Assembly (NCBI GenBank): GCA_016715465.1
Contig: JADKAA010000027.1
Location: 1,548-65,547, forward strand
Origin: Saprospiraceae bacterium
GTDB taxonomy: Bacteria; Bacteroidota; Bacteroidia; Chitinophagales; Saprospiraceae
Direction of reading: 5' to 3'
DNA length: 64,000 nt
Part shown: piece after piece, positions 7,971-53,252 of the stretch
How positions within the stretch are numbered: position 1 is the first letter of the stretch
How the letters are laid out: each line of letters opens with the position of its first letter
Made by a program: the position numbers and the translations under genes
Notes under the pieces: generated by a model
Told to the model about the DNA's origin: nothing
What the model saw: the letters and a program-made list of their open reading frames with translations, nothing else
Databases searched by the model: none

Positions 7971-7978
7971 AAAAGGGC

Positions 7979-16144: not shown

Positions 16145-16175
16145 CCCTTTGTTTAACATTTTAAAGAACTGTAGA

Positions 16176-36741: not shown

Positions 36742-38117
36742 GGATAACTTCGGATAACTGGGTTAATAATAGTTTTGACAAAGTAAAAATAAAGGACATA
36801 GTGTTTATTTCAGGAAATAACATAACCTTCTCTTATCAATCTGATAAGCAAGTACTTAATAGTATTGGTTTTTCACTGGATAAGGCCGACACTTTAGCTA
36901 TTGTTGGTCCCTCTGGGTGCGGAAAATCCACATTATTACGCATTCTCTCAGGATTGTTATCAAGTTCTTCAGGAAATCATTTGACTGGTGACGTGGTAAT
37001 AGACAGCCTTACTTCAAACGAGTATAGGGAAACAGGTAAACTGGCTTTTATGTTTCAGGATGCTACACTTCTGCCTCACCTTTCCGTAAGGCAAAATATA
37101 GGACTGCCATTGAAAATAAAAGGCATTGATGAAAACGGAAAAGTCGAAAGCCTGATTAAGGCAGTTGGTTTGGAAGATGCTGCTGATTATTTGCCCAAAC
37201 AATTATCAGGTGGTATGAGAACAAGGGTGGCTTTGGCAAGGGCTTTTGTAACAGAGCCTGAACTGTTATTACTGGATGAACCATTTTCAGCTTTGGACAT
37301 TGCTTGGAAAAGCAAACTGTACATAGAACTTGAAGAACTCAGAGAACTATATAATACTACCGTAATTATGGTTACTCATGATGTACAGGAAGCCATTTTG
37401 CTTTCCGATAAAATAATTGTACTAAACCGATTTGGACAAATACAACCTCCGGAACATCCTGTTGTGTCCACAATGTCTCATTCAGAACGAGTAAATAACA
37501 TTAGTGGATTTCTGCAACAGGAGCACTACCAAAAACTATTTGTCTCAATTCAGGACATTATCTTAAAAGATGGTAAAAGATTCAACATATCAAAAAAAGA
37601 AGCGCTGCATCTTATTGATAATATCATCCGGATAGCAGGAGACGAAAGAAACGAAAAGTCTTTATCTAAAAACGAATTGGATGCAATAAGAGATTTTTCA
37701 AATGATGTTGAAATAAACGCAAAACTGTTAACTGCCTTTGCTAAAGCGGAAACAGACTACCTCAAATACCAGCTTATTTGGGATATTCTTGAATTTGACG
37801 CACTGCCTGGGTCAGTACATGATGAAATATTTGCTTACTATTTTAAAAATATTGAAACTTTCTCCGAATACTCAAGACAATGGTATGCTCTGCATGACGA
37901 TGAAAGATTTTTTAATATTCTTAAAGGAAGAATTGAAAGCAATAAAGGATATAACTCAAAAAAGAAATGGATTTATTTGTGTGACTTGTATGCAGTAAAG
38001 AAATTACCTGAATTAAGTTCCTTTCTTGAAGATGTAATTGAAGCCAAAATAGAACAGTTAAATTATCCATTTGCTAAAGAGGTCGCAAAACAGGTTAAAG
38101 CAAAAATTAAAGAATGA
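36729..38117 (+). CDS. ABC transporter ATP-binding protein (NitT/TauT-type) with a ~210-aa uncharacterised C-terminal extension
   Basis: GPSGCGKSTL, LSGGMRTRVALARAF and LLLLDEPFSALD. The start is either the GTG at 36729 (overlapping the pAgo stop) or the GTG at 36801, which gives more typical spacing to Walker A. Confidence 0.8.
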   Translation: MVFVGITSDNWVNNSFDKVKIKDIVFISGNNITFSYQSDKQVLNSIGFSLDKADTLAIVGPSGCGKSTLLRILSGLLSSSSGNHLTGDVVIDSLTSNEYRETGKLAFMFQDATLLPHLSVRQNIGLPLKIKGIDENGKVESLIKAVGLEDAADYLPKQLSGGMRTRVALARAFVTEPELLLLDEPFSALDIAWKSKLYIELEELRELYNTTVIMVTHDVQEAILLSDKIIVLNRFGQIQPPEHPVVSTMSHSERVNNISGFLQQEHYQKLFVSIQDIILKDGKRFNISKKEALHLIDNIIRIAGDERNEKSLSKNELDAIRDFSNDVEINAKLLTAFAKAETDYLKYQLIWDILEFDALPGSVHDEIFAYYFKNIETFSEYSRQWYALHDDERFFNILKGRIESNKGYNSKKKWIYLCDLYAVKKLPELSSFLEDVIEAKIEQLNYPFAKEVAKQVKAKIKE

Positions 38118-38854
38118 AGAATAAGATACTTTACATACTGCTTGGTGTCCTGTTGTTGGTTGCATGGCAATATTTTGGAAGCACCAGCCAAACGGTGAGG
38201 CTGTTGCTTTCTTCTCCATCGTTAGTAGCAAACTATTTTGGAGAGAATTATACTGCACTGTTACAGGCATTGCAAGCTACTTTTATTGAAGCTGTTGCTG
38301 GTTTATTGATAGCAATTATTTTCAGTTTTGGAACCATGATACTTTGTTTTCATTTTCCGAAGTTGATGGATTTTGTATTACCCATTATGATAACATCACA
38401 GGTAATACCATTGATTGTGTTAGCACCTTTTTTTATTATTCTTTTTGGCATTGGCCTGAGTTCTAAAGTTGCGATGGCGGCCCTAATGTGTTTCTTTCCA
38501 ATCTTTGTAAATTTTGCTCAGGGTTACAAGGCTATCAACCAAAACATCCATGAACTTATGCACATTTACAATGCGGGTACATGGACAAGAATACGACAAG
38601 TGTATTTCCCTCTTTCTATGCCCAGCATAATGGCAGGTTTGAAAATAAGTGCAACGCTGGCAGTGATTGGGGCAATTGTGGCGGAGTTTAACGGAGCAAA
38701 AGTTGGGTTAGGAAAAAACTTATACTTAGCTGCAAAACGATTGGAACCTGATATGATGATGAGTTCTTTGTTGCTTTCGGCATTACTTGGCGGTGTGGTC
38801 TATCTCTGTATAAGTATCATAGAAAATAAATTAGGTAAATGGTACAAGGCGTAA
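38114..38854 (+). CDS. ABC transporter permease (binding-protein-dependent inner-membrane component)
   Basis: 246 aa with about 6 TM spans and an EAA-like loop (YNAGTWTRIRQVYFPLSMPSIMAGLK). ATGA overlap with the ATPase gene. Confidence 0.75.
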   Translation: MKNKILYILLGVLLLVAWQYFGSTSQTVRLLLSSPSLVANYFGENYTALLQALQATFIEAVAGLLIAIIFSFGTMILCFHFPKLMDFVLPIMITSQVIPLIVLAPFFIILFGIGLSSKVAMAALMCFFPIFVNFAQGYKAINQNIHELMHIYNAGTWTRIRQVYFPLSMPSIMAGLKISATLAVIGAIVAEFNGAKVGLGKNLYLAAKRLEPDMMMSSLLLSALLGGVVYLCISIIENKLGKWYKA

Positions 38855-39543
38855 ATACATATTGGACAAAAGAAGCTGGTGATTTTCATAAAATTGATAA
38901 TGTAGAAAGGGATATTCTATTGCCTTATGTGGCTCAGATAATTAATGATTTAAATCCGAAAAAACTACTTGATTATGGTTGCGGCAGTGGTTATTTGGCT
39001 TGGCTGATTAAAAGGAATACTGAAATTTCATTGTACGACATTAATCCTCAGGTAATAGATGAATATCAACAATGGAATATCACTAACGTTGTGATTCCCG
39101 TAAAAGACAAAAGCCAGATAAGGGACAATTATTACGATGTAGTAGTGCAGACATCTGTATTAATGTGTGTTCCTGTAATTGAGGGAATAAGAGAGATTTT
39201 TAAAGACAATTATACGGCATTGAAGTCAGGCGGGAGCCTCGTAGTTGTCATTACACACCCTTGTTTTCTGCAATATCATTTCGGGCACTATTATACATCT
39301 CTCAATCAAGACAACTTTAATTACTTGGAGAACACAACGAAGTATCAGGTGTATATGAAACAGCCTGATAAAAACCCTATTGTATTCACTGACTATAACT
39401 GGAACTTATCAACTATAATAAATGAAATTATCAAGGCAGGATTTTCACTAACTAAAATGGTTGAGCATCCTGATTTAAAATCAAAATATTTTGAACCTAA
39501 TAACCTTGTATCGCCTTGGTTATTTTTAATCGCTAAGAAGTAA
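38839..39543 (+). CDS. class I SAM-dependent methyltransferase
   Basis: LLDYGCGSGYLAWL (motif I), DVVVQTSVLMCV, GGSLVVVITHP. Confidence 0.7.
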   Translation: MVQGVNTYWTKEAGDFHKIDNVERDILLPYVAQIINDLNPKKLLDYGCGSGYLAWLIKRNTEISLYDINPQVIDEYQQWNITNVVIPVKDKSQIRDNYYDVVVQTSVLMCVPVIEGIREIFKDNYTALKSGGSLVVVITHPCFLQYHFGHYYTSLNQDNFNYLENTTKYQVYMKQPDKNPIVFTDYNWNLSTIINEIIKAGFSLTKMVEHPDLKSKYFEPNNLVSPWLFLIAKK

Positions 39544-40249
39544 ATGAGTTTTAAAGACACATATTGGAGCACAGAGGAAGTAGAACGGCTGTATAAAGCG
39601 GAAAATCCCGAACAGGCTATAATACAACCTATCATAGCCAAACAGGTTGTGGAGTTGAACCCTGCACATATACTTGATTATGGCTGCGGTGATGCTTATA
39701 TGGCTAAAATTTTACCAGACAACATCAACATTGATTTATACGACAGAAACCAACAATCTTTAGAAAAGTATTTCAAACACTTAATAAGCCAAACTGTAAA
39801 AGATTGTATGATGAAAGTGATTTTCAAAATGATTTTTACGACTGCATAGTTTTAAGTTTTGTATTGTGTGTGTGGATAGTTTGGAAGACCAATACAGAAT
39901 TTTAAGAAAACTTAAAACCGCTTTAAAAAAATCTTCGGGAAGGTTGATTATTACCAATTCTCATCCTTGCTTCTTACAGTATGAGTTTACCGCTTTTAAA
40001 ACAAATCTAAGTCCTGAAAATTTCAATTATTTCAATAACGGAATTCCGTATGAAGTTTCTATAAAACAACCCAACGGAAACCCTGATGTAACCTTTACAG
40101 ATTACCAATGGCAATTATCCGTTTGGATAAATATGGCTATTGAGTGTGGCTTTGCATTGCAGGAAATGATAGAAGTTACCGACCAACCTTACAAAGATTT
40201 AAATGAAAACAAATTATATCCACCATTTTTAATACTAAAATTCAAATGA
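39544..40249 (+). CDS. class I SAM-dependent methyltransferase, tandem paralogue of the previous gene; frameshifted around 39780-39870
   Basis: ILDYGCGDAYMA in ORF 39544-39849. SGRLIITNSHPCFLQYEF...TFTDYQWQL in ORF 39866-40249 parallels ITHPCFLQYHF...VFTDYNWNL of the paralogue. Confidence 0.65.
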
Positions 40250-40250
40250 T

Positions 40251-41225
40251 ATGAAACGACTGATCATACTTCTTCCGTTCATTTTAGCTCTTCTGGTTGG
40301 TTGCGACAACCACAGGCGAGGAGATATTCAAAAAGTAAATCTTCGCCAGGAATGGTTTGCCAATGCGAGTTATTTGGGGGAAGTGGTCGCCATTAATGAA
40401 ACAGATTCGTTGAACGGATTGGATATTAACCTAATTGAAGGGGCCGACGATGTTGACCCGATTAAAATGGTGATTTCGGGTAATGATAAATTTGGTGTAT
40501 GTGGGGCCGACAGGGTTTTTACTGCAAATGAAAACGGGGCTGATTTGGTCGTGATTGGTGTAGTGAACTATATAAACCCAACAGTCTTTATAGCTAAGGA
40601 AAATTTAAATGTTCGTATGCCTAAAGATTTTGAAGGTAAAAAGGTTGGTGTATTTACTGGTAATAATACCGAAATGATATACCGTACATTGGTGAGAAAG
40701 GCAGGCTTGAACAAAAACAAAATAACAGAAGTGGAAGCACCTTTTGATTTGGGTTCTTTCATAGCAGGTGCTTATGATATAAGACCAGCTTACATTTTTG
40801 ATGAAACAGTTTCTTTAGATAAAGAAGGAATCAAATACACAGTTGTAAAACCACAGGATTACGGAGTTTCATTTATTGGAACTGTATATTTTACTAAACG
40901 AAGTACAATTGAGAAAGAACCTGACCTGGTACAGGAATTTATTAATTCAATAGCACAAGGTTGGAAGATCGCATTGAATAATCCTGAAAAAGCACTCAGC
41001 TACTTAGCAGCCTACAATAAGACCATTGACATAAACAGGGAAAGGGCGTCATTTAAAGCAGGGATTGATTATTTCAGGGGTGAAAATGGCAAAGTGCTGA
41101 CATCTGACATTCAGAAATGGAAACAAATGGGTAGCGACTTAAAAGATTTAGGTGTTATCAAAGCCTTTGATGCGGATAAGTTTATTAATAGCACTTTTAT
41201 TAATAAATATCACGACAAAAATTAG
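40251..41225 (+). CDS. ABC transporter substrate-binding lipoprotein (NMT1/THI5-like)
   Basis: 324 aa with a lipobox (ILALLVGCDN) and overall SsuA/NMT1-like architecture. Confidence 0.65.
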   Translation: MKRLIILLPFILALLVGCDNHRRGDIQKVNLRQEWFANASYLGEVVAINETDSLNGLDINLIEGADDVDPIKMVISGNDKFGVCGADRVFTANENGADLVVIGVVNYINPTVFIAKENLNVRMPKDFEGKKVGVFTGNNTEMIYRTLVRKAGLNKNKITEVEAPFDLGSFIAGAYDIRPAYIFDETVSLDKEGIKYTVVKPQDYGVSFIGTVYFTKRSTIEKEPDLVQEFINSIAQGWKIALNNPEKALSYLAAYNKTIDINRERASFKAGIDYFRGENGKVLTSDIQKWKQMGSDLKDLGVIKAFDADKFINSTFINKYHDKN

Positions 41226-41227
41226 TT

Positions 41228-42787
41228 ATGACCCAAGAAGACGAACAAATACTGAAGCAGATTAATAGTATCTGGCGAAAAACGGATGCTTTTTTGGTAA
41301 ACCATGACAATAGTTTGCTGTTGTTTGATTTTACAACTGTATCGCATTTTGAAAATAGTGATGAGAAAAGAATCAAATCCATCTATCAGTACAAAATAAG
41401 AAATTACAAGAATTTATTATTAGAATATTTTGAGGAATATGGATACTCGATTCCCCAAAATGCTTCTGGCAATAAGCCATCTATTTATAATGTAAAAGAG
41501 TATTCCGAACCTCTTGTATTAAGTGCTCCGATTCCTGATATCTATCCTGAAACTGTAAATCAAAAGAAAGAAGTGCCACTAGATACCTGGGAGGCCTTTG
41601 TCGAGAATAAAAAGATTGCAGGGGCCTCATGGATATTATTCAAGGATTTTTATAGTAATGAAGAAACAAAAGAACGCATAGAAGTTGGAGTATATATTCT
41701 TTTGCACAAACCTGTTGCATTATGGGATGAAGATAAATCTCAACAAGAGGATGAAATTAACAAGTTTATACACTTTGAAGTTATACAATTTTTATATGAC
41801 AATAGTATCGCTTATATGTCAAAACAGTATGTGAAGGAAAAGTTCGAAAAAAAACAACTCAATCGTGAAAAGATGCTTTATGTTGGCATGGGGCACTACA
41901 TAAAAAATAGTACGCTTGGATTAGAAGCACACGAAAATGAAATTATACAGTATTTGAAATCGCTAACAAATACAGATACTAAAATTCTTGTAACCGCTCA
42001 ATTACAGAAGCTTATTTATAGTTTAATCCGGCTTTATCTTCAAATACGGCAGATTGCAGGTTCGGGTGTTATTGACGTAAAGGTTATACAAACAAAAGTT
42101 CAGGTTAATTTGTATAATTTAATTAATCTAATTTACCTCCATATCATTATTACAAGGGGAAAATTTTATATATCCTTGGATAACCCCAATAATCTTGATT
42201 CTATAAAAAACATAGTTACACATCAAAATGAAATAATCGGAAAACTGACTGAGTTATTGCAAAATCAAACGTTTGAGCAAGCGGATATTGATGCTGTCTT
42301 ATCAAAAAATGATGAGATTGATTCATTTCATTCGTTAGCAAAAAGCGGATACGAAATACTCATAAAAATTGACCCGATCTTGAAAATGAAAGTAGAGTTA
42401 AACAGCATTCAATTCAAATATTTATATACAGTATTTGCAGAAATATTCGATAACTGTTTTAGTAACAAACATTCTCCGGGTTCAAGAACTGCATATTTGT
42501 ATTTTGGAAATGATTATCAGGATTACAATACAATTACAGTCAGTTCCAGGGATTCTTCCATAGATATGGATAATTTATTCAAATTTGAAGATAGTGAATT
42601 ATGTAGCGATTGTGCTTCAACAGGAAACGGAGTTAAGATTGTACAATCTGCATTGGACAACGAATATTTGAAATCTAAGTTATTGATTCCAAAGGACTCT
42701 AAATCTAAATCATTCACAATGTCCAATGGGGGAGAAATAAGTGTATTTGAGTATCGAGTTAAACTGAACAAAAATCTTTTTATATGA
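41228..42787 (+). CDS. soluble histidine-kinase-like protein (H-box plus GHKL ATPase)
   Basis: 519 aa with no TM span. The candidate H-box is GMGHYIKNSTLGLE (His codon 41894-41896). The N-box-like motif is FAEIFDNCFSNK and the G-box-like motif is STGNGVKIVQSAL. Confidence 0.6.
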   Translation: MTQEDEQILKQINSIWRKTDAFLVNHDNSLLLFDFTTVSHFENSDEKRIKSIYQYKIRNYKNLLLEYFEEYGYSIPQNASGNKPSIYNVKEYSEPLVLSAPIPDIYPETVNQKKEVPLDTWEAFVENKKIAGASWILFKDFYSNEETKERIEVGVYILLHKPVALWDEDKSQQEDEINKFIHFEVIQFLYDNSIAYMSKQYVKEKFEKKQLNREKMLYVGMGHYIKNSTLGLEAHENEIIQYLKSLTNTDTKILVTAQLQKLIYSLIRLYLQIRQIAGSGVIDVKVIQTKVQVNLYNLINLIYLHIIITRGKFYISLDNPNNLDSIKNIVTHQNEIIGKLTELLQNQTFEQADIDAVLSKNDEIDSFHSLAKSGYEILIKIDPILKMKVELNSIQFKYLYTVFAEIFDNCFSNKHSPGSRTAYLYFGNDYQDYNTITVSSRDSSIDMDNLFKFEDSELCSDCASTGNGVKIVQSALDNEYLKSKLLIPKDSKSKSFTMSNGGEISVFEYRVKLNKNLFI

Positions 42788-43998
42788 AGCGCTTTGAAAT
42801 CGCAATTATAGATGACCAGGGCCTTGATACCGGGTTTGGCAGATTCTTGGCATTGTTGTATAAGAATCAATACTTGTCATCTAATGATTTTGCATTGGTG
42901 CAAAAAAAAGATTATACAGATGGATTGGGAAAAAATATGATACAAAACTCAATTGCTTTTCAGATATACACCCATAATTACGGTAATCAGGGTTTTAAAA
43001 AATGTTTTTGTGAAGCATTTAGTGACTTTGATAGTAGAAAAGATCAATTTGATATTTATATTTTTGACCTCAATTTTATTGAGCAGGACAATAACTCATT
43101 TTATCCGTTACATTCCAAAAATCAATGCGACACAAGTAAGAAATTTAAGAAAGGATTGACCTTAGATAAGGTGAATGACTCAGACAAATCAACCTTAATT
43201 GCGGGGCTTGAATTTTATCATTGTTTAAAGCCCTCATTTAAGCCTAAAATAATTTATTCGGCAGCACAAGAAACGGCAGTACTTCGTAGCTCAGTCAAAC
43301 TGTTTAATTCAAGGCTCTACGATACATTTATAGTAGATGTTACCGCCCCGGCAGAAGTAAGAAATGATAGCAATGACCCTTTCGAGAATATGGGAGATGT
43401 GTCAAGGACATTTGATGCTATAGATATCTACTTTCAATCCCGTCAAATAGCCATTATCAACAGCCAATTATTAGACAAAGTACAATTGTTAAGCAAAATT
43501 GTTAAAGAGTGGAATGGAAAAGTGGAAAATGCAGATGAACCTTTAATACCTGATAACGGAACCGACTCTAATCCTGCAAATTGTTGGAGTTTAAGAACGT
43601 TGTTTCCAAAGCAGGTAAACAGGATTGAGTTGGGGATTGATGTGGAGGAGAATACAACTAAAATATTGGAAACGATAGGCAACTTGAATTTCCCTTCTAT
43701 TTACAAATTCTTAGTTCATGACCATGGAAATTTAAACGGTATGGAATATGAAAATGTAAAAAATGAACCAATCGTTATAAATAGATTTCCTGCAATACTT
43801 GATTTGGAGTTTAATACTACCGAAAAAGTAACATATGAAAAATTTAGTGAGATTGTCCCTAATCAATCAGCCTATAGTCATAAGACTATAAGAAGGAAGA
43901 TTTATGATATTAATTTTGATGTTCAGAATCAAACAGTTTACAAAGAGTCAAACGGAACTCTTGAGGAAAAAAAACCTCTAGAATTGTTACTGGATTAA
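42784..43998 (+). CDS. receiver (REC)-domain protein with an unknown C-terminal region
   Basis: IAIIDDQG (acidic pair), IYIFDLNF (Asp codon 43066-43068) and KIIYSAAQ. ATGA overlap with the kinase gene. The stop sits just after the A-run 43967-43974. Confidence 0.55.
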   Translation: MKRFEIAIIDDQGLDTGFGRFLALLYKNQYLSSNDFALVQKKDYTDGLGKNMIQNSIAFQIYTHNYGNQGFKKCFCEAFSDFDSRKDQFDIYIFDLNFIEQDNNSFYPLHSKNQCDTSKKFKKGLTLDKVNDSDKSTLIAGLEFYHCLKPSFKPKIIYSAAQETAVLRSSVKLFNSRLYDTFIVDVTAPAEVRNDSNDPFENMGDVSRTFDAIDIYFQSRQIAIINSQLLDKVQLLSKIVKEWNGKVENADEPLIPDNGTDSNPANCWSLRTLFPKQVNRIELGIDVEENTTKILETIGNLNFPSIYKFLVHDHGNLNGMEYENVKNEPIVINRFPAILDLEFNTTEKVTYEKFSEIVPNQSAYSHKTIRRKIYDINFDVQNQTVYKESNGTLEEKKPLELLLD

Positions 43999-44033
43999 CC
44001 GAAGATGGTCGGATTAGTCAAGCAGTTCGGAAA

Positions 44034-44501
44034 ATGGCTGAGTATGGTTTCTATCTCGGAGATTTAAAGCTTATCTACTTAATAATTGATTCTAACTCAA
44101 AATATAATTTTAGTGATACCTATAAAGAGGCTAAGAAAACGAATGGCGAAGAGCTGCCAAAGCCCAAACTAACAATTTCCTATTTCTCTCAAGAGGTAAT
44201 AGTAAATATTAGTTACGATTCTGATAATGAATATTACACGCAATCTAATTTGCATATTAATCCTATTTATGAAGGAATTAAAAAGTTATTGCAAAACAGA
44301 CAAGATTGGAAGATAATCGACCAATTAGGCCCCACCCAAATATTTAAAATCCTGGCGTACCGCTATAACACAGAATTCGAAGTTAGAGTAGGGAAATTAT
44401 CTTTTTCTGCTGGTCGTTTCGGGATTACTGATATTCAAACTAATGATGATGGAGACAAAACTTATTTTCAATTCAAATTACCGACTCTAATAAAATCTTA
44501 A
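44034..44501 (+). CDS. hypothetical protein, possibly the C-terminal part of the preceding gene
   Basis: The reading frame stays open upstream of the ATG, back to the A-run 43967-43974. The end, DDGDKTYFQFKLP, weakly resembles the last strand of GHKL ATPases. Confidence 0.4.
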   Translation: MAEYGFYLGDLKLIYLIIDSNSKYNFSDTYKEAKKTNGEELPKPKLTISYFSQEVIVNISYDSDNEYYTQSNLHINPIYEGIKKLLQNRQDWKIIDQLGPTQIFKILAYRYNTEFEVRVGKLSFSAGRFGITDIQTNDDGDKTYFQFKLPTLIKS

Positions 44502-44513
44502 AAGGAGAATAAT

Positions 44514-45047
44514 ATGAATTACATAGTAATTGACTCAGTCGACACTCGGGCAAATAAATTAATTCAAAGATTAAATAATACTGCTGTAAAATGGCAATAT
44601 ATTGATTTTCTGTCTGAGAATGACAAACCTGATAATAATACGCTGTATTTGATTCATCACAGTGATGGGTATGTAGGAGAATTTGCCATGAAAATAAATT
44701 CATTGGAAAATGCTTTTGTGCTATTTTATTCAGGAGGCGGGCTTTCAGCAGATGAACTGAAAGCACAAGGAGATAAGATATTTTTTTATGCTGGCGGATT
44801 AAATTCTGGTGTAGATGAAAAAGCTATAAATATAATAAATGAAATTGTTTCAGTCATAAGCAAAGAAGACAACGTAACAAAAGTCATTGTACAAATAAAG
44901 AAAGTGCTTGGTTTTGATGAGCAACTCGAAAAATTACTTGAACCCTTCGCAACAGCAAATCCATTTAAAACGGAAAGCTCAAATGGAGAAAACTTAAAAC
45001 AAGCCAAAGAAGCATTGAACAAATACATTAATAGCAAGGCATTATGA
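44514..45047 (+). CDS. stand-alone pseudo-receiver-like protein
   Basis: 177 aa. LYLIHHSDGY ... VLFYSGGG parallels the N-terminal domains of the next two proteins (VYVIDVHCVF..VVFYSPIS and VYLINAHLNW..FIFYSPIQ). Confidence 0.45.
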   Translation: MNYIVIDSVDTRANKLIQRLNNTAVKWQYIDFLSENDKPDNNTLYLIHHSDGYVGEFAMKINSLENAFVLFYSGGGLSADELKAQGDKIFFYAGGLNSGVDEKAINIINEIVSVISKEDNVTKVIVQIKKVLGFDEQLEKLLEPFATANPFKTESSNGENLKQAKEALNKYINSKAL

Positions 45048-46957
45048 ATAAGGTATTTATATCAAATACAAAAGTTCAGAATACTGAAACAGATATTGTT
45101 TTCTGTCCAACCAATCGCCTTAGCGAGAAGTTGGAAGCTGTTGATACATCTGGCAAAACTGTATATGTTATAGATGTTCATTGTGTTTTTACAAATAATA
45201 AAAAGCAACTAAAATTACAAGACCAGGGCGGTGTAACAATCTACCGCCAATTACTGCAAAAATTCGATGGTAATCAGGATAAACTAAAAGTAGTTTTCTA
45301 CTCACCAATCTCTCAGGAGGATTTAGTAAAACTAAAGCCCGAAAACTATGTGCTAAGTTTGTTACCGTTGGTGGAATGTAAATATGAAGAAGGCCAGTTT
45401 GAAAGTGAGCTTGCCAGAATTATTTCTGACAATAAATTTCCGCTGTTTAATAACGCTTCAGAGAATTTGTTAAGTGGATGGGCGTTATTTAGAGCAGACA
45501 ATAACAGAAAGGAAAATGACTTTGTCGAAACACAATACAAACATAAAACCCCCACAGATAAGCCAAGGGTAATAACTTTTATAGACGATGAAATCAATGA
45601 GTGGAGAGAAACCTATTCCAAAATATTTGAGCAAGGGAAAAATATAAGATTGATAATGTACCAAAAAGAGAAACATCCATTTTGGGAATTTAGTGAGGAA
45701 AAAATTGACAATCTTAAAAATCATGTGATGCAGTCGGCTCTGATTGTTTCAGATTTCTATTTGCAGGAAAATCATGCTCCAAATACATGGTTGAGCAATA
45801 AGCAACTTGAAGATAAAAGCGGTTTTAAATTATTTAATGCAATTAAAGGTGGCGGCTACAAAGATGGTATTCATAAAGGTGTTCCATATATTATGTACAC
45901 ATCAAGCAATAAAATCCAGTATTATCAGTATTTGGATGCACATGGCATTGATAATTGGTTGGTAAAAGATGTTCGACCTAATGCTACTGCTTTTGAAAAG
46001 AAAGATGGCTTTTATACATTTAAAAAGGTTATTGAGGAGTTTACTCATCAGGAAAGCTCTCACTTGTATGCCATACTCAAGTTGTATTGGGAACGGATAC
46101 AAAAGCTGGAGGCTCGAATTAAGGAAATGGATTATGATAGGATTTCAAACTGGTGGTATTCTCTATCGGGGCAAAATGAAGAAGATAGGGAGGAAATTCA
46201 AGTGAAATCTAGCTGGGAAAAGTGTAAAAAAGCAAGTAGTGAAAATGTTGATGAAGTTATCGGATTGCTAAAAGATTCATGGATGGCTATTCGTGCAAAC
46301 ATGAACCGGGAAACTGTTTTTGCCGAAAGTGTAGGAAGCATGGATAGGCATTTTACCGCAGCATCAGTATGTTCAAATTTAGGTAAGCTATTTGAGTTTT
46401 TCAATTTCACTCAAGGCATGAAATTGAATACTTACTTTAAGTTCCTCTTTTGCATAAGAAACATTGGAAGCCATTATAAGCAATATAAAAGCATAGAATT
46501 GGAGGATGCACTAATTTATTTTGACTGTTGGCTAACTGTCTTAGAAAAGAAGGAAGTGAGAGTATTTGAAGCTTTCAAGCCCCTATTAAATGTAGAAGAG
46601 TTTATCTTTCAAGGGAAAACGCTCAATACCAGTGATACCTTTGTATATGCACTATTGTATGGGTACATTCAATTTATAAATGGGTTTCATCTAAAAGAAA
46701 GCAGCCTGGCAAATGTCCTGATTAAGAAAAGGGTATCAGAAATACTATTTAATGCAGATAAAAAAATACTTGCTGCTGAATTAGAAACGGATTTCTTTGG
46801 AGAATTTGGAAATAAAATATTTTTAAAAAAGCATAGAAACAACAGAACTAATTCGCCAAATGCCAATAGAATTGTGAGCAACTGGAAGTCTGGCGGAACT
46901 AACTATGGAATAATTATCGAACAAGATGGAAGAATGTACATTACAAATAATGCCTAA
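45044..46957 (+). CDS. dual receiver-like protein with a C-terminal HEPN-like (Rx4H) helical domain
   Basis: REC2 has ITFIDDEINEW, ALIVSDFYL (Asp 45752-45754) and YIMYTSS. The C-terminal FLFCIRNIGSHYKQY gives R 46457-46459 and H 46472-46474. Confidence 0.55.
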   Translation: MNKVFISNTKVQNTETDIVFCPTNRLSEKLEAVDTSGKTVYVIDVHCVFTNNKKQLKLQDQGGVTIYRQLLQKFDGNQDKLKVVFYSPISQEDLVKLKPENYVLSLLPLVECKYEEGQFESELARIISDNKFPLFNNASENLLSGWALFRADNNRKENDFVETQYKHKTPTDKPRVITFIDDEINEWRETYSKIFEQGKNIRLIMYQKEKHPFWEFSEEKIDNLKNHVMQSALIVSDFYLQENHAPNTWLSNKQLEDKSGFKLFNAIKGGGYKDGIHKGVPYIMYTSSNKIQYYQYLDAHGIDNWLVKDVRPNATAFEKKDGFYTFKKVIEEFTHQESSHLYAILKLYWERIQKLEARIKEMDYDRISNWWYSLSGQNEEDREEIQVKSSWEKCKKASSENVDEVIGLLKDSWMAIRANMNRETVFAESVGSMDRHFTAASVCSNLGKLFEFFNFTQGMKLNTYFKFLFCIRNIGSHYKQYKSIELEDALIYFDCWLTVLEKKEVRVFEAFKPLLNVEEFIFQGKTLNTSDTFVYALLYGYIQFINGFHLKESSLANVLIKKRVSEILFNADKKILAAELETDFFGEFGNKIFLKKHRNNRTNSPNANRIVSNWKSGGTNYGIIIEQDGRMYITNNA

Positions 46958-48473
46958 AATATATTACCATATCTGTAACCCTTCCACACCTGAGCAACCA
47001 GGTATTAAAAACGTATATTCTTTAAAGGATTTACAAAAGGTGAAAGAGGATGCCACTACTGTTTACCTGATTAATGCTCATTTGAATTGGGAGGGAAGAA
47101 GATTGAGTGGTAATTACGGGTTTGATATTTCCAATGAATTGAGAGCAAAGTTAAAATCCAAAGCCCCTTTTATTTTTTATAGCCCAATACAAGTAAAATA
47201 CTTTGAGCAAGAGAGTAAAAATGACATTAGGTATAAAATTCTTTTTGGTAGCGGGTCAGCATTTATAAATTTTCCGTTTACATACCAGGAGCTGAGGGAT
47301 ATTTCTGAAAAATTAAAGCCATTAAGTAATGCAGGCTTGCATGACGTAGTTACCATGTTATGTAATGTAAAAGGATTGATAATTGACAAGCTCAATCATA
47401 ATTTAAAATGGGGAGTTGATAGCGAAAAAATAATTGCTCAAATCAAGCCCTACCTTTCCATTGAACAGCAAAGAACAATTGATTTTGATGTCTTTTCAAA
47501 TGCTCTCAGCAAAGCATCAGGGAAACAAGATTTTGATGCTGTAGTACAAAACTGGGTAGAGGTATGTACTTCACGTCTCACAGAGGATGTACAGAACTAT
47601 TCATATACTACTAACTTCCCGTACAAAGTATTATTGGTTGATGATGTTCAGGAGTATTTGGACAAAGCAAAGCAGTATTTGTCAAGCGACTTTGATATTC
47701 TTACGACCAAGTCTTGTGAAGAGGCTATACAAATATTAGCTAAAGATGGTGATAATAAAATTCTGGCAGTAATTGCCGATTGGCGCTTATATGATACTAC
47801 AAATCCGGATTATTGGCAAGCTATGCAGGGTTATGAAGTGCTTGCTTTTGCAGCTAGGAATGGTATACGCAGTTTAATAGCCCTGACATCCCAGTCTGAA
47901 TATATTGTACATAGACTGCGGGAACTCCTTGGTATTTGGTTTTCTTTGTATAAGAAACAACACTTAGAGAAGCAGGAGCAATGGCAGTTATTTTCTAATA
48001 TGCTTGCCGATGCCTGCCTGCGTACAAATGAAGCTATACTTAACAGGCCAACTGCAACAAACTGGACATCTAATAGAAGAAAGGACATCGTTAGTGAATT
48101 TTCTCCAAAAGAGATTTATGCAATTTTTAGGAGTAATGGAAAACTGTCCGAAATAGAAGATAAAGCAGATATTATCTGGCAGTCCTATTTAGATAAACAT
48201 CAAATTCGCTACCGGCTAAACGAGTTAAGCACTACTTATATTACGTTTGATACAACGGAAGAAATGCTGGTTCAACGAAGAATTTTCCTTGGCTTGTATC
48301 ATAGCGAATTTTCAATAGACGACATTTGCTGTGAAATGTCAAAGGACCCTAAAAAAGGACCCGGTAAAAACGACATAACCCAATTGAAAAGTAAACTCTG
48401 CATTAAGAACGAAGATTTAACCGGCGGTAAGATTTTAATTGAAGAAACAGCCTGGCTCAAAAATGGGGTTTAA
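46950..48473 (+). CDS. dual receiver-like protein, paralogue of the previous gene, with an unknown C-terminal domain
   Basis: The canonical REC has KVLLVDDVQEYL, LAVIADWRLYD (Asp 47778-47780) and LIALTSQS. The start is taken at the ATG at 46950, which overlaps the upstream stop by 8 nt. The ORF is open from 46926. Confidence 0.55.
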   Translation: MPKIYYHICNPSTPEQPGIKNVYSLKDLQKVKEDATTVYLINAHLNWEGRRLSGNYGFDISNELRAKLKSKAPFIFYSPIQVKYFEQESKNDIRYKILFGSGSAFINFPFTYQELRDISEKLKPLSNAGLHDVVTMLCNVKGLIIDKLNHNLKWGVDSEKIIAQIKPYLSIEQQRTIDFDVFSNALSKASGKQDFDAVVQNWVEVCTSRLTEDVQNYSYTTNFPYKVLLVDDVQEYLDKAKQYLSSDFDILTTKSCEEAIQILAKDGDNKILAVIADWRLYDTTNPDYWQAMQGYEVLAFAARNGIRSLIALTSQSEYIVHRLRELLGIWFSLYKKQHLEKQEQWQLFSNMLADACLRTNEAILNRPTATNWTSNRRKDIVSEFSPKEIYAIFRSNGKLSEIEDKADIIWQSYLDKHQIRYRLNELSTTYITFDTTEEMLVQRRIFLGLYHSEFSIDDICCEMSKDPKKGPGKNDITQLKSKLCIKNEDLTGGKILIEETAWLKNGV

Positions 48474-48994
48474 CCGAATAGCTCTCAGATAAGCAAAGAA
48501 AAGTGATTTTCACTCAATAGAGTTTGCCGGTTTGTAAGGGTTCATTACTTTTACACCAGTTCTTAGAAATACTTCATGTCAATTTGATTTGTGATGAAGC
48601 TTTGACCAATGTCAAAGTAAATGCTTGTAAAATTTCATCATTTAATCAACTGATTATGACAAAGTATTTCTGGACAATTATCTTAAACCCAGGCAAAGCT
48701 GATTACGATATCAGCCACCACTGGCCTGGGAAAATCAATAAACAACACCACCTTCTGGGGTGTGTTGTTATCATCTATGTCTTATTGGTTGCCGTTTCAG
48801 GCAAAAGCATTGTTTACTACCACACAAGTTTATTAGCCATCGTTTTTGCGGCGGACATTTTTTTTCCTTTCAGGGCAGCTTTAGCCAATTTCTTTCCTGC
48901 TACTTTTTTATGGAGTTGTTTGTTTCAGGTAAAGGATTATTCCTTCTCAACACAAATAATATTCACACATTTTCACCTCTAAAAAGTCATTGAT

Positions 48995-49273
48995 ATGCGA
49001 ACCTTTTTAACCATGTTTCTTATACTCTGCATAGTAGCCCTGATTATCGCAGTGATTTACGATTACCTGACACCTAGCGGCGCTGCCGTTGGCGGCGTGG
49101 CACTTAGGCTTGTTTTGTTTGAACTGAGAAGAATCCTGGTAGTCATTGCGGTTGTGTTGGTAATTGCATTTTTCTTGAAATACGGCGGCGACATTCAGAA
49201 GGCAAAAGCCATAATTGAAGATGCAAGAGGGTTGGTTAATTCAGGGGTTAAATATTTAGAAGTATATAAATAA
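48995..49273 (+). CDS. small two-TM membrane protein
   Basis: 92-aa ORF with two hydrophobic spans, positioned 5 nt upstream of the DUF4407-like gene. Confidence 0.45.
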   Translation: MRTFLTMFLILCIVALIIAVIYDYLTPSGAAVGGVALRLVLFELRRILVVIAVVLVIAFFLKYGGDIQKAKAIIEDARGLVNSGVKYLEVYK

Positions 49274-49278
49274 ACATT

Positions 49279-50427
49279 ATGAAATCTATTAAAACATTTT
49301 TGTTCCGCCTGGCCGGTGTTGATTACGCTGTAATCAGACTTCTATCAGCGAAAACTAAATTTCGCTATGTGGCCATTGCATTCTCAACGCTTATCCCGTC
49401 AGCCTTCGCCTTCATTGGCGGGTTCGACATCGCCAAAAACTTCAATGCCGGCTTGGGCATTTCTGTACTTGTTGGCATCTTTTGGATGCTGGTAATCGCC
49501 GGGTTTGACTTTATTATCATCAATTATGGTAAGGCCTCCGGTTTTTTAAGAACCATACGAATAGCAGCCGGTGTAAGCAATGTTCTTATTACCACAATTT
49601 TCCTTTTCACTTTCCTTAACCATAGCAGCATTAATAACAAAATTAATGGTGCTAATGCAAAAGAGGTTACGGCCTGCGATTCGACTTACCTCGTCCAAAA
49701 GGAAACCCGGTATGCCGAAGTAACCAGCAAAAGGCAGCAAAAGGATTTGTACCACCAAAACAATTGCGCCCCCGAAGCAGCAAGGATAAAACCTGGCCCG
49801 CTATACGCCGAGAAACATTCTTACTGTATTGCCCAGGATTCAGTGATAAGAAATGAGGAAGCTAAGATTGATAGCGCCGAAATGCTGTACCGGGACGCAT
49901 ACCTTGTACAGAAAAATGAAATTTTAAACAGGACAAGCAACGATCCATTTTATAAGGCTGATGTGCTGTTTAGCCTGATATTGGGTAGTTTTTCAAAATT
50001 CTTCCTTGCACTCATTTTTCTGATAGCACTTATTACCCTGGAATTACTACCGCTTTATTTAAAATTCAATATTGATCCTAAAACTGACGGGGCACAAATA
50101 GCGGAGGAGAATCACGACCAGATGTGCAATAATGCAGCTGACCAAAAAATAAAAGACATGGTCGAACATTCAGATAAAATGGATAGTCTGAAAAAGAAAA
50201 AGGAGGAGAGGGAAGCCCTAATGAAATGGGCTAATGAAGAACTTTTGAATACCCATAAAAGGGCTCCGCTTTTTTACCGCCTAAAAGAGTATAAAAGAAT
50301 TTACAGGGAAAACGGCCTGTATGAAGCTGCTGACGAGATTAATAAAATCCAGAATGCAATTACCAATAATGATGAGGAGGTAGAAAAACTGCTGAATCAG
50401 GCTATTAATAAAAGGAATAAAAATTAG
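49279..50427 (+). CDS. DUF4407-like membrane protein with a coiled-coil C-terminus
   Basis: 382 aa. The N-terminal LAGVDYAVIRLLSAKTKFRYVAIAFSTLIPSAFAFIGG pattern and the TM layout are as in DUF4407. Confidence 0.5.
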   Translation: MKSIKTFLFRLAGVDYAVIRLLSAKTKFRYVAIAFSTLIPSAFAFIGGFDIAKNFNAGLGISVLVGIFWMLVIAGFDFIIINYGKASGFLRTIRIAAGVSNVLITTIFLFTFLNHSSINNKINGANAKEVTACDSTYLVQKETRYAEVTSKRQQKDLYHQNNCAPEAARIKPGPLYAEKHSYCIAQDSVIRNEEAKIDSAEMLYRDAYLVQKNEILNRTSNDPFYKADVLFSLILGSFSKFFLALIFLIALITLELLPLYLKFNIDPKTDGAQIAEENHDQMCNNAADQKIKDMVEHSDKMDSLKKKKEEREALMKWANEELLNTHKRAPLFYRLKEYKRIYRENGLYEAADEINKIQNAITNNDEEVEKLLNQAINKRNKN

Positions 50428-50430
50428 GTT

Positions 50431-50661
50431 ATGAAAAAACTGTTTACAAAACTATCCAGCTTTTTTAAAAGAAAAGGGTATCAGCCTGATCAGGCGGATA
50501 TGCCCGTTTTTGACGAGTCCTCAACCAGCGAAGAAGCGCAGCCATCAGAAGCAAACGCCCCTGTTCAGGAATTTAACCTTGTCGAAGAACTGAAAAAAGC
50601 CAAAGCTGAAATAGCGGAGGTGAACAAGGCATTCAAAGAAGAACCATACCATCAGGCATAA
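50431..50661 (+). CDS. small acidic hypothetical protein
   Basis: 76-aa ORF tightly packed between its neighbours. Confidence 0.35.
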   Translation: MKKLFTKLSSFFKRKGYQPDQADMPVFDESSTSEEAQPSEANAPVQEFNLVEELKKAKAEIAEVNKAFKEEPYHQA

Positions 50662-52959
50662 TGAAAAGAAAATTATACATACTTACTGCGCTGGCCTTAG
50701 CCACCATTCTTTTTGGCTCATACAGCTTGTACAACATGGTGCTGCAATGCCGCACCCCGTATTATATTGAATGTGCAGGCAAGAAATTAGACAGCACTAC
50801 AGTTATTGCCATAAGCAATAGTAAGTCGGCCGGGGCCGATACTTTAAATTTCAATTTTGAGCAATCAAAAGTGATTATGCCAACAACACTGGCACATCTG
50901 CATTTTAATAATACAAAAGGACAATTTGAATTGAAGAACAATGCCCAGCATATTCAATGCCGCCAAAACAGTGCCGGAGAACTATTTTTTACCTTTTTGC
51001 CATACGCTGACTGATAACTGGCGGCAGAAAGGAATATATTTTGGCAGTGATGCCCCCATTGATGAAAGTATTCTTTCAACCCGTGGCCTGAAGTGGAATA
51101 CGGCCGCCGGGGACAGAAATACCAGGGTAAGCCTTCAACTCTTTAAAAATGCAGGAAACACTTTCATTCGCTTTAATGTCGATGGTATAAATTGCAAGTA
51201 CCTAATTAAAAAGAAAGATAAAAATGTCTTTGATATTTTTATTAATCAGCCGGTTATTTCCGAAAATGCCTTTGTCTTCAAGTTTGATAACACCAGCTTA
51301 GACACGGGGAAATACTCCTTTGAAATTACCGCATCCACATTCAAAGCAAATAGCACCCTGAAAGACGAAGCAGGGAATATCATATCCCAAACCAGCGGTT
51401 CGGATTTTTATGTAATGGCCGGAAATTACTTATTCCACATTACGCCAAAATATTCATTCAAATTCTTCATCTTTTATCTTGGGTTCTTTATCATCTTGCT
51501 AGCATTCCAGTTTTATTTCATTCTTACTGCGGCAAAGGCTGTCAACTCAATAATATTCTCCCTGTCCTCTGTCAGGATATTGATTAACTGTATCATTTTT
51601 TTGGCTACCCCATTATTTTTAACTGCATACTACCTGGGGGCAAACAGGATATGGTACCTCGTACTAATCCTTTTTCTGAATGCTTCATATTTCACTCCTA
51701 AAACAATTTTACATAATCTCAACTTAAAGGCACAAGCAAAATGGGTCCTCTATGTATTATGTGCTATCATCATTGCCGCAACAGTTCTTATAAAACCATT
51801 TACGGTGAATGAGAACCTGTTTGGGCGAATTCCTGTTCTTCATGTACAAAAGTTCCTGCTGTTAATGCTTGTTTTGGTAACACAAAGAAGATTGTTCCAT
51901 AAAATCAAATACGGCAATTGGTATCGGATAATAATAGTATTGGCATACTCATTTTTACTTAGCATTTTGACATCCGATATTGGCTCTGTTTTATATGCCG
52001 GACTTGCCTTGTTGATCGTTGAGTTAATCCGAAAGACTCTCAGCATAAAAAAAGCAGTAATAGGCGCAGGGCTATTTGTAGCAACAGTAGTCATTGCTTA
52101 TAATATTTCACCCGGTAGCGTTTGTAAATATAAAGGCTATAGGCTGCTTGCACCTTACACAAACCCGGCAAGCGATAAGCTAATTGAAGCAGAAGAAAGG
52201 GACAGGGAAACATACGCCGCACTCACTCTCAACTTAAAGAGTTTGTTTTATGAAAATACCCCCCGGTTTAATGAAGTATCTATTCCTGCCAACATGAGAA
52301 CGACCATACACACAGACTATGCAATGATGGGGGGCTACACGTTAGGCGGCTTTAACTTTCTGCTGTTATTTGTGCTGGTTCTGTTTTACCTGGTTAAGGA
52401 ATTATTTTTACTCCTGTTTTTTACTATCCGAAAGATCAGGGTTAATAAAACAGTTACTTATTCATTACCTAATTCAAGCGAAGCGGAACTTTTAAGGATT
52501 TTCCTGGCCTTCTCGATAGTACAATTTTGTTACCCTTTATTCAGCAACCTCTTACTCCTGCCTGTTACTGGCCAGTCTTTGCCAGGGCTGAGCATAAGTA
52601 ACATTGAAATAATTTTCCTGATACTGCTTTTGGTCCCTGTCGGCAGTATATTTTCCAATGCCAAATACTATTCAAACGCCACGCCATCAAATTATTTATA
52701 TGGCGATGCTGTAAAAAGCCTGAATTTTGGAATGTTTCTCCTCGCTTTACTATTTATCATAGGGATAACCATTAAAGCTGTTGCTTTATACCGGACAGAT
52801 AATATAATACAATGGACTAAGCAGGTATCTGATAAAGGTATTACACCGGAAACAAACATTCCCATAGCAGCAAATAAACAGGGCTTAATTAGCTATGCCA
52901 AAACAATAATTGGGGATGAAAAAATTTATAACGTATCAGCAGAAAAAAACCAATTTTAA
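50661..52959 (+). CDS. divergent SEDS (FtsW/RodA-like) polytopic membrane protein with an N-terminal anchor and extracytoplasmic domain; indel near 50985-51000
   Basis: ORFs 50661-51014 and 50941-52959. SEDS-like motifs are IPVLHVQKFLLL (cf. iQPsEfaK), LTSDIGSVL (cf. pDlGt), HTDYAMMGGYTLGGF (cf. HTDFIFAvigEElG) and LPVTGQSLPGLS (cf. P.tG..LPf.S). Confidence 0.6.
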
Positions 52960-53252
52960 AGGAACTGTCAGGCCTGTATTATTCAAATAAACCATATTCG
53001 CAAACAGTTTTTGAATCAAAAACATTTGAACAAAGTATAACCCGGTTACTGCGGCAAACAACCGTTGATTCTGCCTTTACTGTAAATAAGAAAGTCATAT
53101 CCGGGACCTACGAACCTTTCGGCAAAGTATATGCTGTTTCCCAAAAAGTTAATGACAAACCAAGTATCTCTGTTACCAATTCTTATTATGCTTCAATACC
53201 TGCAAATGCTGAAACTATACAGGGGGATCTGACAGCCGAAATTACCAGGGCA

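Follow-up and report, generated by a model that had tools for sequence, protein, structure and literature searches.

The stretch of DNA analysed here, which we call the window, comprises 64,000 nucleotides (nt) of a metagenome-assembled genome (MAG) of a Saprospiraceae bacterium. Its region 41228–48473 contains a string of closely packed genes, which are named here by the lengths of their products, 519, 572, 177, 637, and 515 amino acids (aa); the 519-aa kinase protein carries the NCBI label IPN29_09870. These genes are interpreted, with modest assurance, as the signalling and effector core of a conserved importer-linked cassette that would act as a two-component-style conflict or defence system. 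A preliminary description of the region had listed six genes, packed tightly on the forward strand, for a soluble histidine kinase and five receiver or pseudo-receiver proteins, and had likened them to the Detocs defence system. The tight packing was confirmed, with all open reading frames (ORFs) lying at the positions reported there; the pAgo and cassette genes of the window given below are likewise on the forward strand. The sequence motifs quoted there were also found in place, namely GHYIKNSTL (containing His223), EIFDNCFS, GNGVKIV, IAIIDD/IFDLNF, ITFIDDE/IVSDFYL, VLLVDD/IADWRLY, YVIDVH, YLINAH, YLIHHSD, and IRNIGSH. The number of genes was corrected to five, as the ORFs 42784–43998 and 44034–44501 constitute a single 572-aa gene. 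One T is missing from the window at 43978/43979, as seen by comparison with two independent, short-read-derived metagenome contigs (L001 and L002) that are 99.97–99.98% identical to it; this single gap is the sole difference, and the 572-aa gene is uninterrupted in both. Because the missing T explains the split and the near-identical contigs keep the frame, the two ORFs were joined, and the 155-aa ORF was rejected as a separate gene. The fused 572-aa protein is encoded in four further loci, with invariant residues in both of its halves. The 515-aa gene most likely starts at 46950 (MPKIYYHICN), a position preferred because its homologues begin there. From this start it overlaps the 637-aa gene by 8 nt, and from the ATG at 46926 by 32 nt.

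The 637-aa protein (45044–46957) is composed of an inactive receiver domain (residues 1–165), a canonical receiver domain (approximately 175–330) whose acceptor D237 is encoded at 45752–45754, and a helical C-terminal domain carrying the motif RNIGSH (46457–46474). Its family comprises at least 120 clusters, mostly from Chitinophagales, Saprospiraceae, and other Bacteroidota, with some from Acidobacteria. An alignment of 98 homologues exhibited invariance of D181, D182, D237, S288, and K308, as well as of H46, G63, Y67, R68, S139, E140, and G145 in the N-domain. A confident AlphaFold2 (AF2) model was obtained for this protein (pLDDT 90.9, pTM 0.90), and in a Foldseek search with it residues 1–350 aligned first with tandem-receiver proteins (PleD, 3mf4/3luf, and PorX, over approximately 290–360 columns), followed by single CheY domains with TM-scores of approximately 0.6–0.7. 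These tandem-receiver matches indicate that a canonical receiver follows an inactive one in this protein. Response_reg was detected in 44 of 78 homologues (best E-value 4.6e-7). Furthermore, hhalign aligned the middle domain with a small CheY/Spo0F/PhoB/NtrC profile at 96%, a control of lead grade only. The superposition of the predicted fold of residues 1–350 on PleD (REC-REC-GGDEF) and PorX (REC-PglZ) shows a shared arrangement, in which one receiver holds the acceptor Asp, the other serves as an adaptor, and the output is enzymatic (by prediction in the 637-aa protein) rather than DNA-binding. Unlike these proteins, the cassette protein has the inactive receiver first, an output domain unrelated to theirs, and an inactive receiver with invariant motifs of its own (H46, Y67, R68, and FNNASENLLSGW).

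A similar organization was found for the 515-aa protein (46950–48473), for which conservation, Response_reg matches, and a PDB match point to an inactive receiver, a canonical receiver, and a conserved C-terminal helical domain. Its residues D240, D285, and K344 are invariant in 13 homologues and T321 is at least 90% conserved, with the acceptor D285 encoded at 47778–47780. Response_reg was detected in six of the 13, and the receivers of HupR and CheY in the PDB matched the protein with an E-value of 2e-4. The N-domains of the 515-aa and 637-aa proteins are homologous to each other (hhalign 95%, E-value 3.6e-8). The window sequences of both proteins fall below the cut-off of Pfam PF00072. A 638-aa protein occupying the 637-aa slot in locus L003 matched the Pfam model iREC ("Inactive Receiver domain") with an E-value of 7e-8 in addition to Response_reg, and its N-domain aligned with the 515-aa family at 70.6% by hhalign. 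A direct match to iREC (PF22563) is weak in the 515-aa family, being found in one of 13 homologues (E-value 0.08). Since Pfam holds an iREC model, the inactive-receiver domain, at least, has been noticed before. Domain scans revealed no DNA-binding output domain in either receiver protein. The count of five receiver or pseudo-receiver proteins was hence too high; two are verified, each with one inactive and one active receiver. The canonical receivers proposed earlier are supported for these two by conservation, fold, and profile, and the protein starting at 42784 is receiver-like by motif only. The idea of pseudo-receivers likewise held for the same two proteins (Foldseek, hhalign, and iREC) and was not supported for the 177-aa protein, to which it had been extended.

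One further observation concerns a His located two residues past the acceptor-equivalent position. All 98 sequences of the 637-aa family have it in the inactive receiver (H46 of the VH at 45176–45181); it is common in the 515-aa family (H of YLINAH, 47076–47078), where it is missing in L003 and L008, and present at the same position in 10 of 13 members of the 177-aa family (HH of YLIHHSD, 44655–44660). A role of the inactive-receiver His in phosphotransfer or ligand binding is conceivable.

The 519-aa protein (41228–42787) was assigned, by AF2, Foldseek, and conservation, as a cytoplasmic sensor histidine kinase with a PAS-like N-domain (residues 1–160), a DHp domain, and a divergent CA domain. 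The codon of His223 lies at 41894–41896, the N-box at 42434–42463, and the G-box at 42623–42646. The kinase family is small, with 12 proteins at 90% clustering and three longer fusion proteins (15 sequences in total). Throughout it His223 and G468 do not vary, N409 is at least 90% conserved, and good conservation over the first 200 residues gives way to divergence in the remainder. The AF2 model shows an N-terminal alpha/beta domain, a 70-residue helix bearing His223, a return helix, and a C-terminal alpha/beta domain, so that a DHp-type hairpin is formed by helix 172–245, which contains His223, and helix 251–274. When this model was compared with the PDB by Foldseek, more than 40 of the top 50 matches were sensor histidine kinases, with best probabilities of 0.98–1.0. 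Alignments with the PAS-DHp-CA proteins YF1 and SB2F1 covered 417–516 columns, and HK853, RetS, WalK, KinB, and EnvZ were also matched. Weak HATPase_c matches at the N-box region were detected in three relatives only (E-value 0.003–0.008). The window kinase itself gave no HATPase_c match, a profile of the kinase family found nothing in Pfam or the PDB, the G1 box (DxGxG) is not evident, and the ATP lid is degenerate. Taking the Foldseek matches, the invariant His223, and the HATPase_c signals in three relatives together, the earlier assignment of a soluble histidine kinase is accepted at the level of the predicted fold.

The C-terminal domain of the 637-aa protein is a candidate effector. In the AF2 model, R472-N-I-G-S-H477 is placed at the end of helix 463–476 and runs into the loop before helix 486–500, and E451 terminates the preceding long helix 435–452. 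Residues E451, R472, H477, and D488 are at least 90% conserved in the 98 homologues. According to a survey of HEPN domains, the characteristic motif is Rx4-6H with a polar residue after the Arg, located where helix 3 ends and passes into a loop, together with an acidic residue in helix 2 (PMC3710099). The motif of the 637-aa protein agrees with this description in its conservation and in its placement on the model. Such an R-N-x-x-x-H at a helix end, an acidic residue in the helix before it, and an all-helical domain fused to a regulatory sensor domain are shared with HEPN immune RNases (Abi2/Swt1-like, PrrC/RloC, and Csm6/Csx1; PMC3710099). The domain differs from them in that it matched no HEPN family significantly, whether by profile or by fold, and a receiver–HEPN fusion is not listed in that survey. 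A profile of the C-terminal domain gave no match in the PDB, and in Pfam it found only HEPN_Swt1, for one member, with an E-value of 0.04–0.09. In a Foldseek search of the PDB and BFVD with the full 637-aa model as the query, the matches listed were all of the receiver type. The HEPN-like effector proposed earlier therefore stands as far as the conservation and position of its motif are concerned, and profile searches add no support for a HEPN fold; we regard the HEPN assignment as plausible, slightly favoured, and unproven. The exchangeability of this domain was supported independently. The 637-aa homologue in L008 stops after the receiver (338 aa; hhalign 98.5%) and is followed by a gene for a dCMP_cyt_deam_1/MafB19-deam deaminase (L008:8430–10677), and in L006 the 637-aa slot is occupied by a 523-aa deaminase protein (L006:9429–11000). 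This swap speaks for the C-terminal domain being an exchangeable effector.

Between the kinase and the 637-aa protein, two less readily classified proteins are encoded. The 572-aa gene (42784–44501, with the 1-nt deletion at 43978/43979) specifies a receiver-like N-terminus followed by conserved middle and C-terminal domains. Residues D10, D11, D95, and S159 are invariant in its family, and neither Pfam, the PDB, nor hhalign gave support for a receiver fold. The small protein of approximately 180 aa (177 aa in the window, 44514–45047) keeps its position directly upstream of the 637-aa gene. A gene for approximately 156–207 aa lies there in every locus that reaches this position, and 18 of the 23 products cluster with the window protein, the others being those of L015, L018, L020, L022, and L023. 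The L008 homologue aligned with the window protein at 99.9% by hhalign. A pseudo-receiver akin to the other N-domains was considered for this small protein and rejected, as hhalign gave only approximately 0–2% and Pfam no match.

These five genes are part of a larger conserved unit. Homologues were collected by looking up exact sequences and by scanning genome representatives and metagenomes, and their neighbourhoods yielded 24 usable loci, from which a cassette of 12–15 genes spanning approximately 13–17 kb was recognized. In the window it extends over 36729–54140, with a gene for a prokaryotic Argonaute (pAgo) ahead of it. The boundary at 41228 drawn in the preliminary description was thus wrong, since the conserved unit adds 36729–41225 upstream and 49279–54140 downstream; the constant importer, the small-molecule enzymes, and the membrane/envelope tail that were missed there alter the likely mechanism. 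The gene order is fixed as importer, zero to two small-molecule enzymes, kinase-position protein or proteins, the ~180-aa protein, the 637-type protein, the 515-type protein, and the tail. An ABC importer dependent on a substrate-binding protein (SBP) was present in all 21 loci having upstream sequence, and it belongs to one of two types: NMT1/THI5, with one permease and one ATPase, or Liv, with two permeases, two ATPases, and a Peripla_BP_6 SBP. The enzyme slot holds two S-adenosylmethionine (SAM)-dependent methyltransferases, a PALP enzyme, an SDR-like protein, or proteins of no assigned family. Four forms were observed at the kinase position, namely a 519-type kinase with a 572-type protein, a 900–1040-aa protein that includes the whole 519-type kinase, a protein of approximately 590 aa denoted "c17", and a 628-aa protein. 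The stand-alone 519-type kinase occurs only behind the NMT1-type importer, and its conserved N-terminal half mostly accompanies that type; a longer kinase relative lies behind the Liv-type importer in L020/L022. The c17 protein has an invariant His, and N/G1/G2-like boxes in three of eight members; its profile found nothing significant in the PDB. Among the kinase-position proteins, the fold prediction covered the window-type kinase. Most loci that extend downstream carry a tail, and 20 loci have one of two tail modules. One consists of a DUF4407 protein, a small ORF, and a transpeptidase-like membrane protein of approximately 1150 aa (7 loci, including the window), and the other of two proteins without assignment, joined in some cases by a transglutaminase-like protein (13 loci).

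In the window, the cassette begins with an ABC transporter ATPase (36729–38117; Pfam ABC_tran, E-value 7e-32) that is 53–61% identical to those of related cassettes. It is followed by an importer permease of the BPD_transp_1 type (38114–38854), 85–89% identical to the PF00528 permeases of L003, L006, L008, L013, and L018, and by SAM-dependent methyltransferase 1 (38839–39543), 82–85% identical to Methyltransf_23/11/12 proteins of related cassettes. SAM-dependent methyltransferase 2 (39544–40249) was traced by tblastn through two frameshifts and corresponds to intact 235-aa genes elsewhere. The importer is completed by an NMT1/THI5-family substrate-binding lipoprotein (40251–41225), 77–90% identical to PF09084 (NMT1) proteins of related cassettes, whose N-terminus (...ALLVGC) resembles a lipoprotein signal. 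The tail starts with a DUF4407-like membrane/coiled-coil protein (49279–50427; Pfam DUF4407, E-value 3.6e-5, below the gathering score), homologues of which follow the cassette in L010, L012, L014, L020, L022, and L037. The next large gene (50661–54140), recognized by tblastn and syntenic in 7 loci, encodes a polytopic membrane protein of approximately 1150 aa with two frameshifts and a C-terminal penicillin-binding transpeptidase-like domain. Its homologue in L010 (L010:15003–18467) matched Pfam Transpeptidase with an E-value of 5e-5 and contains SxxK; a profile of the 1154-aa tail protein gave no match in the PDB. Promoter and terminator scans performed no better than on shuffled sequence, and no tRNA marks a border of the island.

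The defence-island setting reported earlier was upheld by PADLOC. Upstream of the cassette it detected a PrimPol/DRT-like gene (16062–18488), a DrmD-like SNF2 helicase (19013–21622), a DrmMI-like methyltransferase (21875–25825), an AbiL/AriA-like ATPase (25909–27192), and a DruE-like helicase (29493–34648), so that DISARM-, Druantia-, and AbiL-like genes and the pAgo are the neighbours in the window. Other cassettes are flanked by AbiEii, AIPR, PDDEXK_4, DUF4420, DUF1016/YhcG, or a ResIII helicase. The pAgo (34690–36741), an optional upstream partner, matched Pfam Piwi with an E-value of 6e-12 and the PADLOC model PDLC02385 from end to end with an E-value of 4e-227. Its best relatives in the PDB are AfAgo, RsAgo, and EcAgo, and by these nearest solved relatives it is of the long-B type. 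This neighbour recurs, as a pAgo homologue lies directly before the cassette also in L010 (Liv-type importer) and L013/L042 (NMT1-type importer), where an AAA_15 ATPase or a ResIII/RE_endonuc protein precedes it. As a pAgo was found before only 3 of approximately 15 cassettes with visible upstream sequence, the cassette appears to be autonomous in most genomes. Like the long-B pAgo systems (BPAN/BPAS/BPAM; PMC10620215), the window has a long-B-type pAgo, co-oriented genes just downstream, and a defence-island location. Those systems differ in having a nuclease, SIR2, or simple membrane effector where the window has an importer-kinase-receiver cassette, most copies of which are without a pAgo.

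The two halves of the cassette differ in the rate at which they have diverged. Between the window and L013, L003, L008, and L006, the permease, methyltransferase 1, and the SBP are 82–90% identical (77% for the SBP of L008). For the same loci, identities were 34–54% for the kinase, in its N-terminal part only, approximately 30% each for the 572-aa and 177-aa proteins, 35% for the 637-aa protein, 23–39% for the 515-aa protein, and 38% for the pAgo. Third-codon identity within the identical residues of the conserved block was 0.5–0.7. Because synonymous sites have already diverged to this extent, the conserved input block is attributed to purifying selection, and recent horizontal transfer was rejected as an explanation for how similar the importer genes are. 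The proteins closest to the window 637-aa protein (53–60%) lie behind Liv-type importers, which indicates that the input and output halves have been recombined. On these comparisons the output half is fast-evolving or shuffled. Such a combination of conserved input chemistry with a fast, shuffled output is the pattern expected of a conflict system. The 637-aa family is also rare and patchy, with 9 loci among 185,579 species representatives, all of them MAGs. The possibility that the homologues are fixed housekeeping regulators, which the preliminary description had set against its own proposal, was looked at and is excluded by this rare and patchy distribution.

From the domain folds, the conserved catalytic and acceptor residues, the synteny, the genomic context, and the lack of DNA-binding outputs, we infer a pathway in which ligand import would be the input, phosphate would pass from the kinase to the receivers, RNase activity would be among the outputs, and the whole would probably serve an immune or conflict function. 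The ABC importer, of the NMT1/THI5 type here and the Liv type in other loci, would take up a small molecule, which the adjacent enzymes (two SAM methyltransferases here, a pyridoxal-phosphate enzyme or others elsewhere) would modify. The PAS-like N-domain of the cytoplasmic kinase is then supposed to sense this molecule, or its absence, leading to autophosphorylation on His223 and to phosphoryl transfer to D237 of the 637-aa protein and D285 of the 515-aa protein, possibly also to D95 of the 572-aa protein. Phosphorylation would shift the packing between inactive and active receivers and thereby release or dimerize the C-terminal outputs, namely the predicted RNase with its HEPN-like RNxxSH motif in the 637-aa protein and the helical domain of the 515-aa protein. 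The membrane/envelope proteins downstream may be additional outputs. Judging from the genomic setting, the outcome may be growth arrest or some other response against invaders, brought about by RNA cleavage and membrane/envelope effects. The phosphorelay is the part of this explanation that we consider probable. A bolder version is a tentative proposal and rather unlikely: the cassette would represent a new class of immunity in which an imported extracellular small molecule is the trigger, marked by the enzymes, read by the PAS-kinase, and answered by firing of receiver-gated effectors. The ligand could possibly be a pyrimidine- or amino-acid-like compound from infected or lysed neighbours, or a modified base derived from a phage; a HEPN-like RNase, a deaminase, and envelope effectors would respond, alongside a long-B Argonaute in some genomes, and the invariant His of the inactive receiver could be an internal, Hpt-like phosphotransfer site.

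Several observations weigh against a defence or conflict system built on such a phosphorelay. When the six ORFs were each searched as single sequences in Pfam, NCBIfam, and PADLOC, no curated threshold was reached; the 637-aa and 515-aa proteins gave faint Response_reg matches, which were the sole signals. For the kinase, the AF2 model has medium confidence (pLDDT 73.8, pTM 0.55), and Foldseek returned low TM-scores for it. Neither profiles nor folds lent significant support to the HEPN assignment, and a search of 1.84 billion proteins with the C-terminal profile gave 50 relatives, none linked to a known HEPN family. Nearly all of these are of similar length with the domain in the same C-terminal position, and a Pfam scan of the ten relatives of atypical length found Response_reg or nothing. 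All members come from uncultivated bacteria, and the 637-aa protein was not found in the plasmid, phage, or IMG/VR viral-contig collections, so that mobility is not shown. Ordinary genes adjoin a few cassettes, such as TrmE in L011/L014. In the window, frameshifts interrupt several genes of the cassette, which makes its functioning in this genome uncertain unless they stem from errors of assembly. Finally, we know of no defence system with an SBP-dependent importer, and the importer, the metabolic-type enzymes, and the penicillin-binding protein (PBP)-like envelope protein would fit a physiological regulator equally.

This last point leads to the main rival, which we hold to be possible though rather improbable, that the genes form a physiological, non-immune operon responding to a metabolite. 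A nutrient or cell-wall metabolite would be taken up, and envelope or peptidoglycan synthesis would be tuned post-translationally via the PBP-like/SEDS-like and DUF4407 proteins, while RNA turnover may be adjusted as well. The invariance of the importer and enzymes under strong purifying selection fits such an operon, as do the transpeptidase-like domain or transglutaminase-like protein in the tail, the housekeeping genes that adjoin some loci, and the failure of the six ORFs to match known defence models in PADLOC. It accounts less well for a rare, patchy distribution confined to MAGs, for defence genes that are repeatedly adjacent, with a pAgo in three loci having different importer types, and for effector-like domains that are swapped (RNxxSH versus deaminase) in an output half that diverges fast; a DNA-binding regulator is also lacking.

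Compared with a two-component-style conflict system of its own, it is improbable that the cassette is the effector arm of a catalytically inactive long-B pAgo that detects invader nucleic acid. The pAgo is immediately upstream and co-directional in the window, L010, and L013/L042, covering both importer types, and its closest solved relatives are the long-B or truncated AfAgo, RsAgo, and EcAgo; long-B pAgos are reported to rely on co-encoded effectors (PMC10620215). The low frequency of the pAgo, in 3 of the ~15 informative loci, and the low identity among the pAgos of these cassettes (38–39%) argue against this dependence, and the pAgo literature searched mentions no importer or receiver partner.

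Equally doubtful is the idea that the cassette is a decaying, non-functional remnant in this genome, with frameshifts that are real mutations. Four genes in the window are split by frameshifts and have intact homologues elsewhere, which are those of the DruE-like helicase (998 + 715 aa, 29493–34648), methyltransferase 2, the 572-aa protein, and the PBP-like tail protein. Methyltransferase 2 was followed by tblastn with the intact 235-aa protein of L013 through frames 1, 3, and 2 at 92–94% identity, and the tail gene through frames 3, 1, and 3 with the intact protein of L022; an exact-sequence look-up of the SBP, which was aimed at methyltransferase 2 in other assemblies, returned no record. 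The broken frames of the three cassette genes would be expected of a remnant. However, conservation is good wherever the frame is unbroken, the nearly identical short-read-derived contigs L001 and L002 have an intact 572-aa gene, and the DruE-like gene, which is unrelated and lies upstream, is also split, pointing to a general indel rate of the assembly. This suggests that the breaks are indel errors of a long-read MAG assembly rather than gene decay.

The relation to Detocs has two sides. Detocs consists of the TPR-sensor kinase DtcA, the buffer receiver DtcB, and the receiver-effector DtcC, with swappable effectors (Rousset et al., bioRxiv 10.1101/2023.01.24.525353). Both systems employ a histidine kinase and a response regulator in which an effector of toxic type, a candidate one here and swappable in both, replaces the DNA-binding output, and both reside in defence islands. 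In terms of the Detocs components, a kinase with a phospho-accepting His was found at the fold level, and the counterpart of DtcC is the 637-aa candidate effector, a receiver fused to a C-terminal domain with the Rx4H motif; a stand-alone buffer receiver and a three-gene operon were not found. The cassette differs further in showing no detectable sequence relationship, in its PAS-like sensor, in its two large proteins with an extra inactive receiver, in outputs of the RNxxSH (HEPN-like) or deaminase kind in place of the PNP of Detocs, and in its 12–15 genes including an ABC importer, enzymes, and a membrane/envelope tail. The Detocs-like phosphorelay of the preliminary description is thus retained as a functional analogy from kinase to receiver-effector, and a fair one given the kinase, the genuine receivers with non-DNA-binding outputs, the conserved Rx4H, and the defence island, and it was given up as a statement of membership on account of the PADLOC result, the gene number, and the missing buffer receiver. 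That the cassette is a true Detocs member with an unusual effector is very improbable, since the shared kinase and receiver-effector logic, island location, and swappable effectors stand against a PAS-like rather than TPR sensor, the lack of a verified stand-alone receiver, 12–15 genes with an importer rather than three, inactive receivers that precede the receivers, and the failure of all six ORFs to match PADLOC-DB 2.0.0, in which the presence of Detocs models is unverified.

The 12–15-gene importer-kinase-receiver cassette has apparently not been described so far, as the literature searched on iREC, DUF4407, pAgos with ABC or receiver partners, and receiver–HEPN fusions, in which subscription journals were incompletely covered, contains no account of it and reports no receiver–HEPN fusion. 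To our knowledge, based on the literature searched, Detocs is the only two-component-based defence family. If the conflict-system interpretation is true, the cassette would add to Detocs another two-component-based solution to defence, unrelated to it and far more elaborate, in which pairs of inactive and active receivers gate non-transcriptional effectors, and in which one core works with interchangeable importers before it and interchangeable effector domains behind it. It would also offer a new candidate partner for long-B Argonautes and raises the question of whether an imported metabolite, rather than an intracellular phage component, can trigger bacterial immunity or a conflict response. 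In addition, the cassette provides protein families without a recognizable fold, which are the 572-aa and 177-aa proteins and the C-terminal domains of both receiver proteins.

The importers themselves resemble classical NMT1/THI5 (ThiY/TauA-like) and Liv (Peripla_BP_6) systems, with an ATPase, a permease, and a lipoprotein SBP that bear normal family signatures. They differ from classical ABC importers in being fixed beside a kinase, multi-receiver proteins, and effector-like domains, and in that two unrelated importer families are interchangeable before the same output genes. The ATPase of the window has a C-terminal helical extension of approximately 170 aa, which is missing in most homologous cassettes (263–269 aa); a similar one was seen in L018 (446 aa). 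In L043, from a Chloracidobacterium MAG, a Transposase_mut gene (7643–8857) is located between the kinase-position genes and the gene for the small protein.

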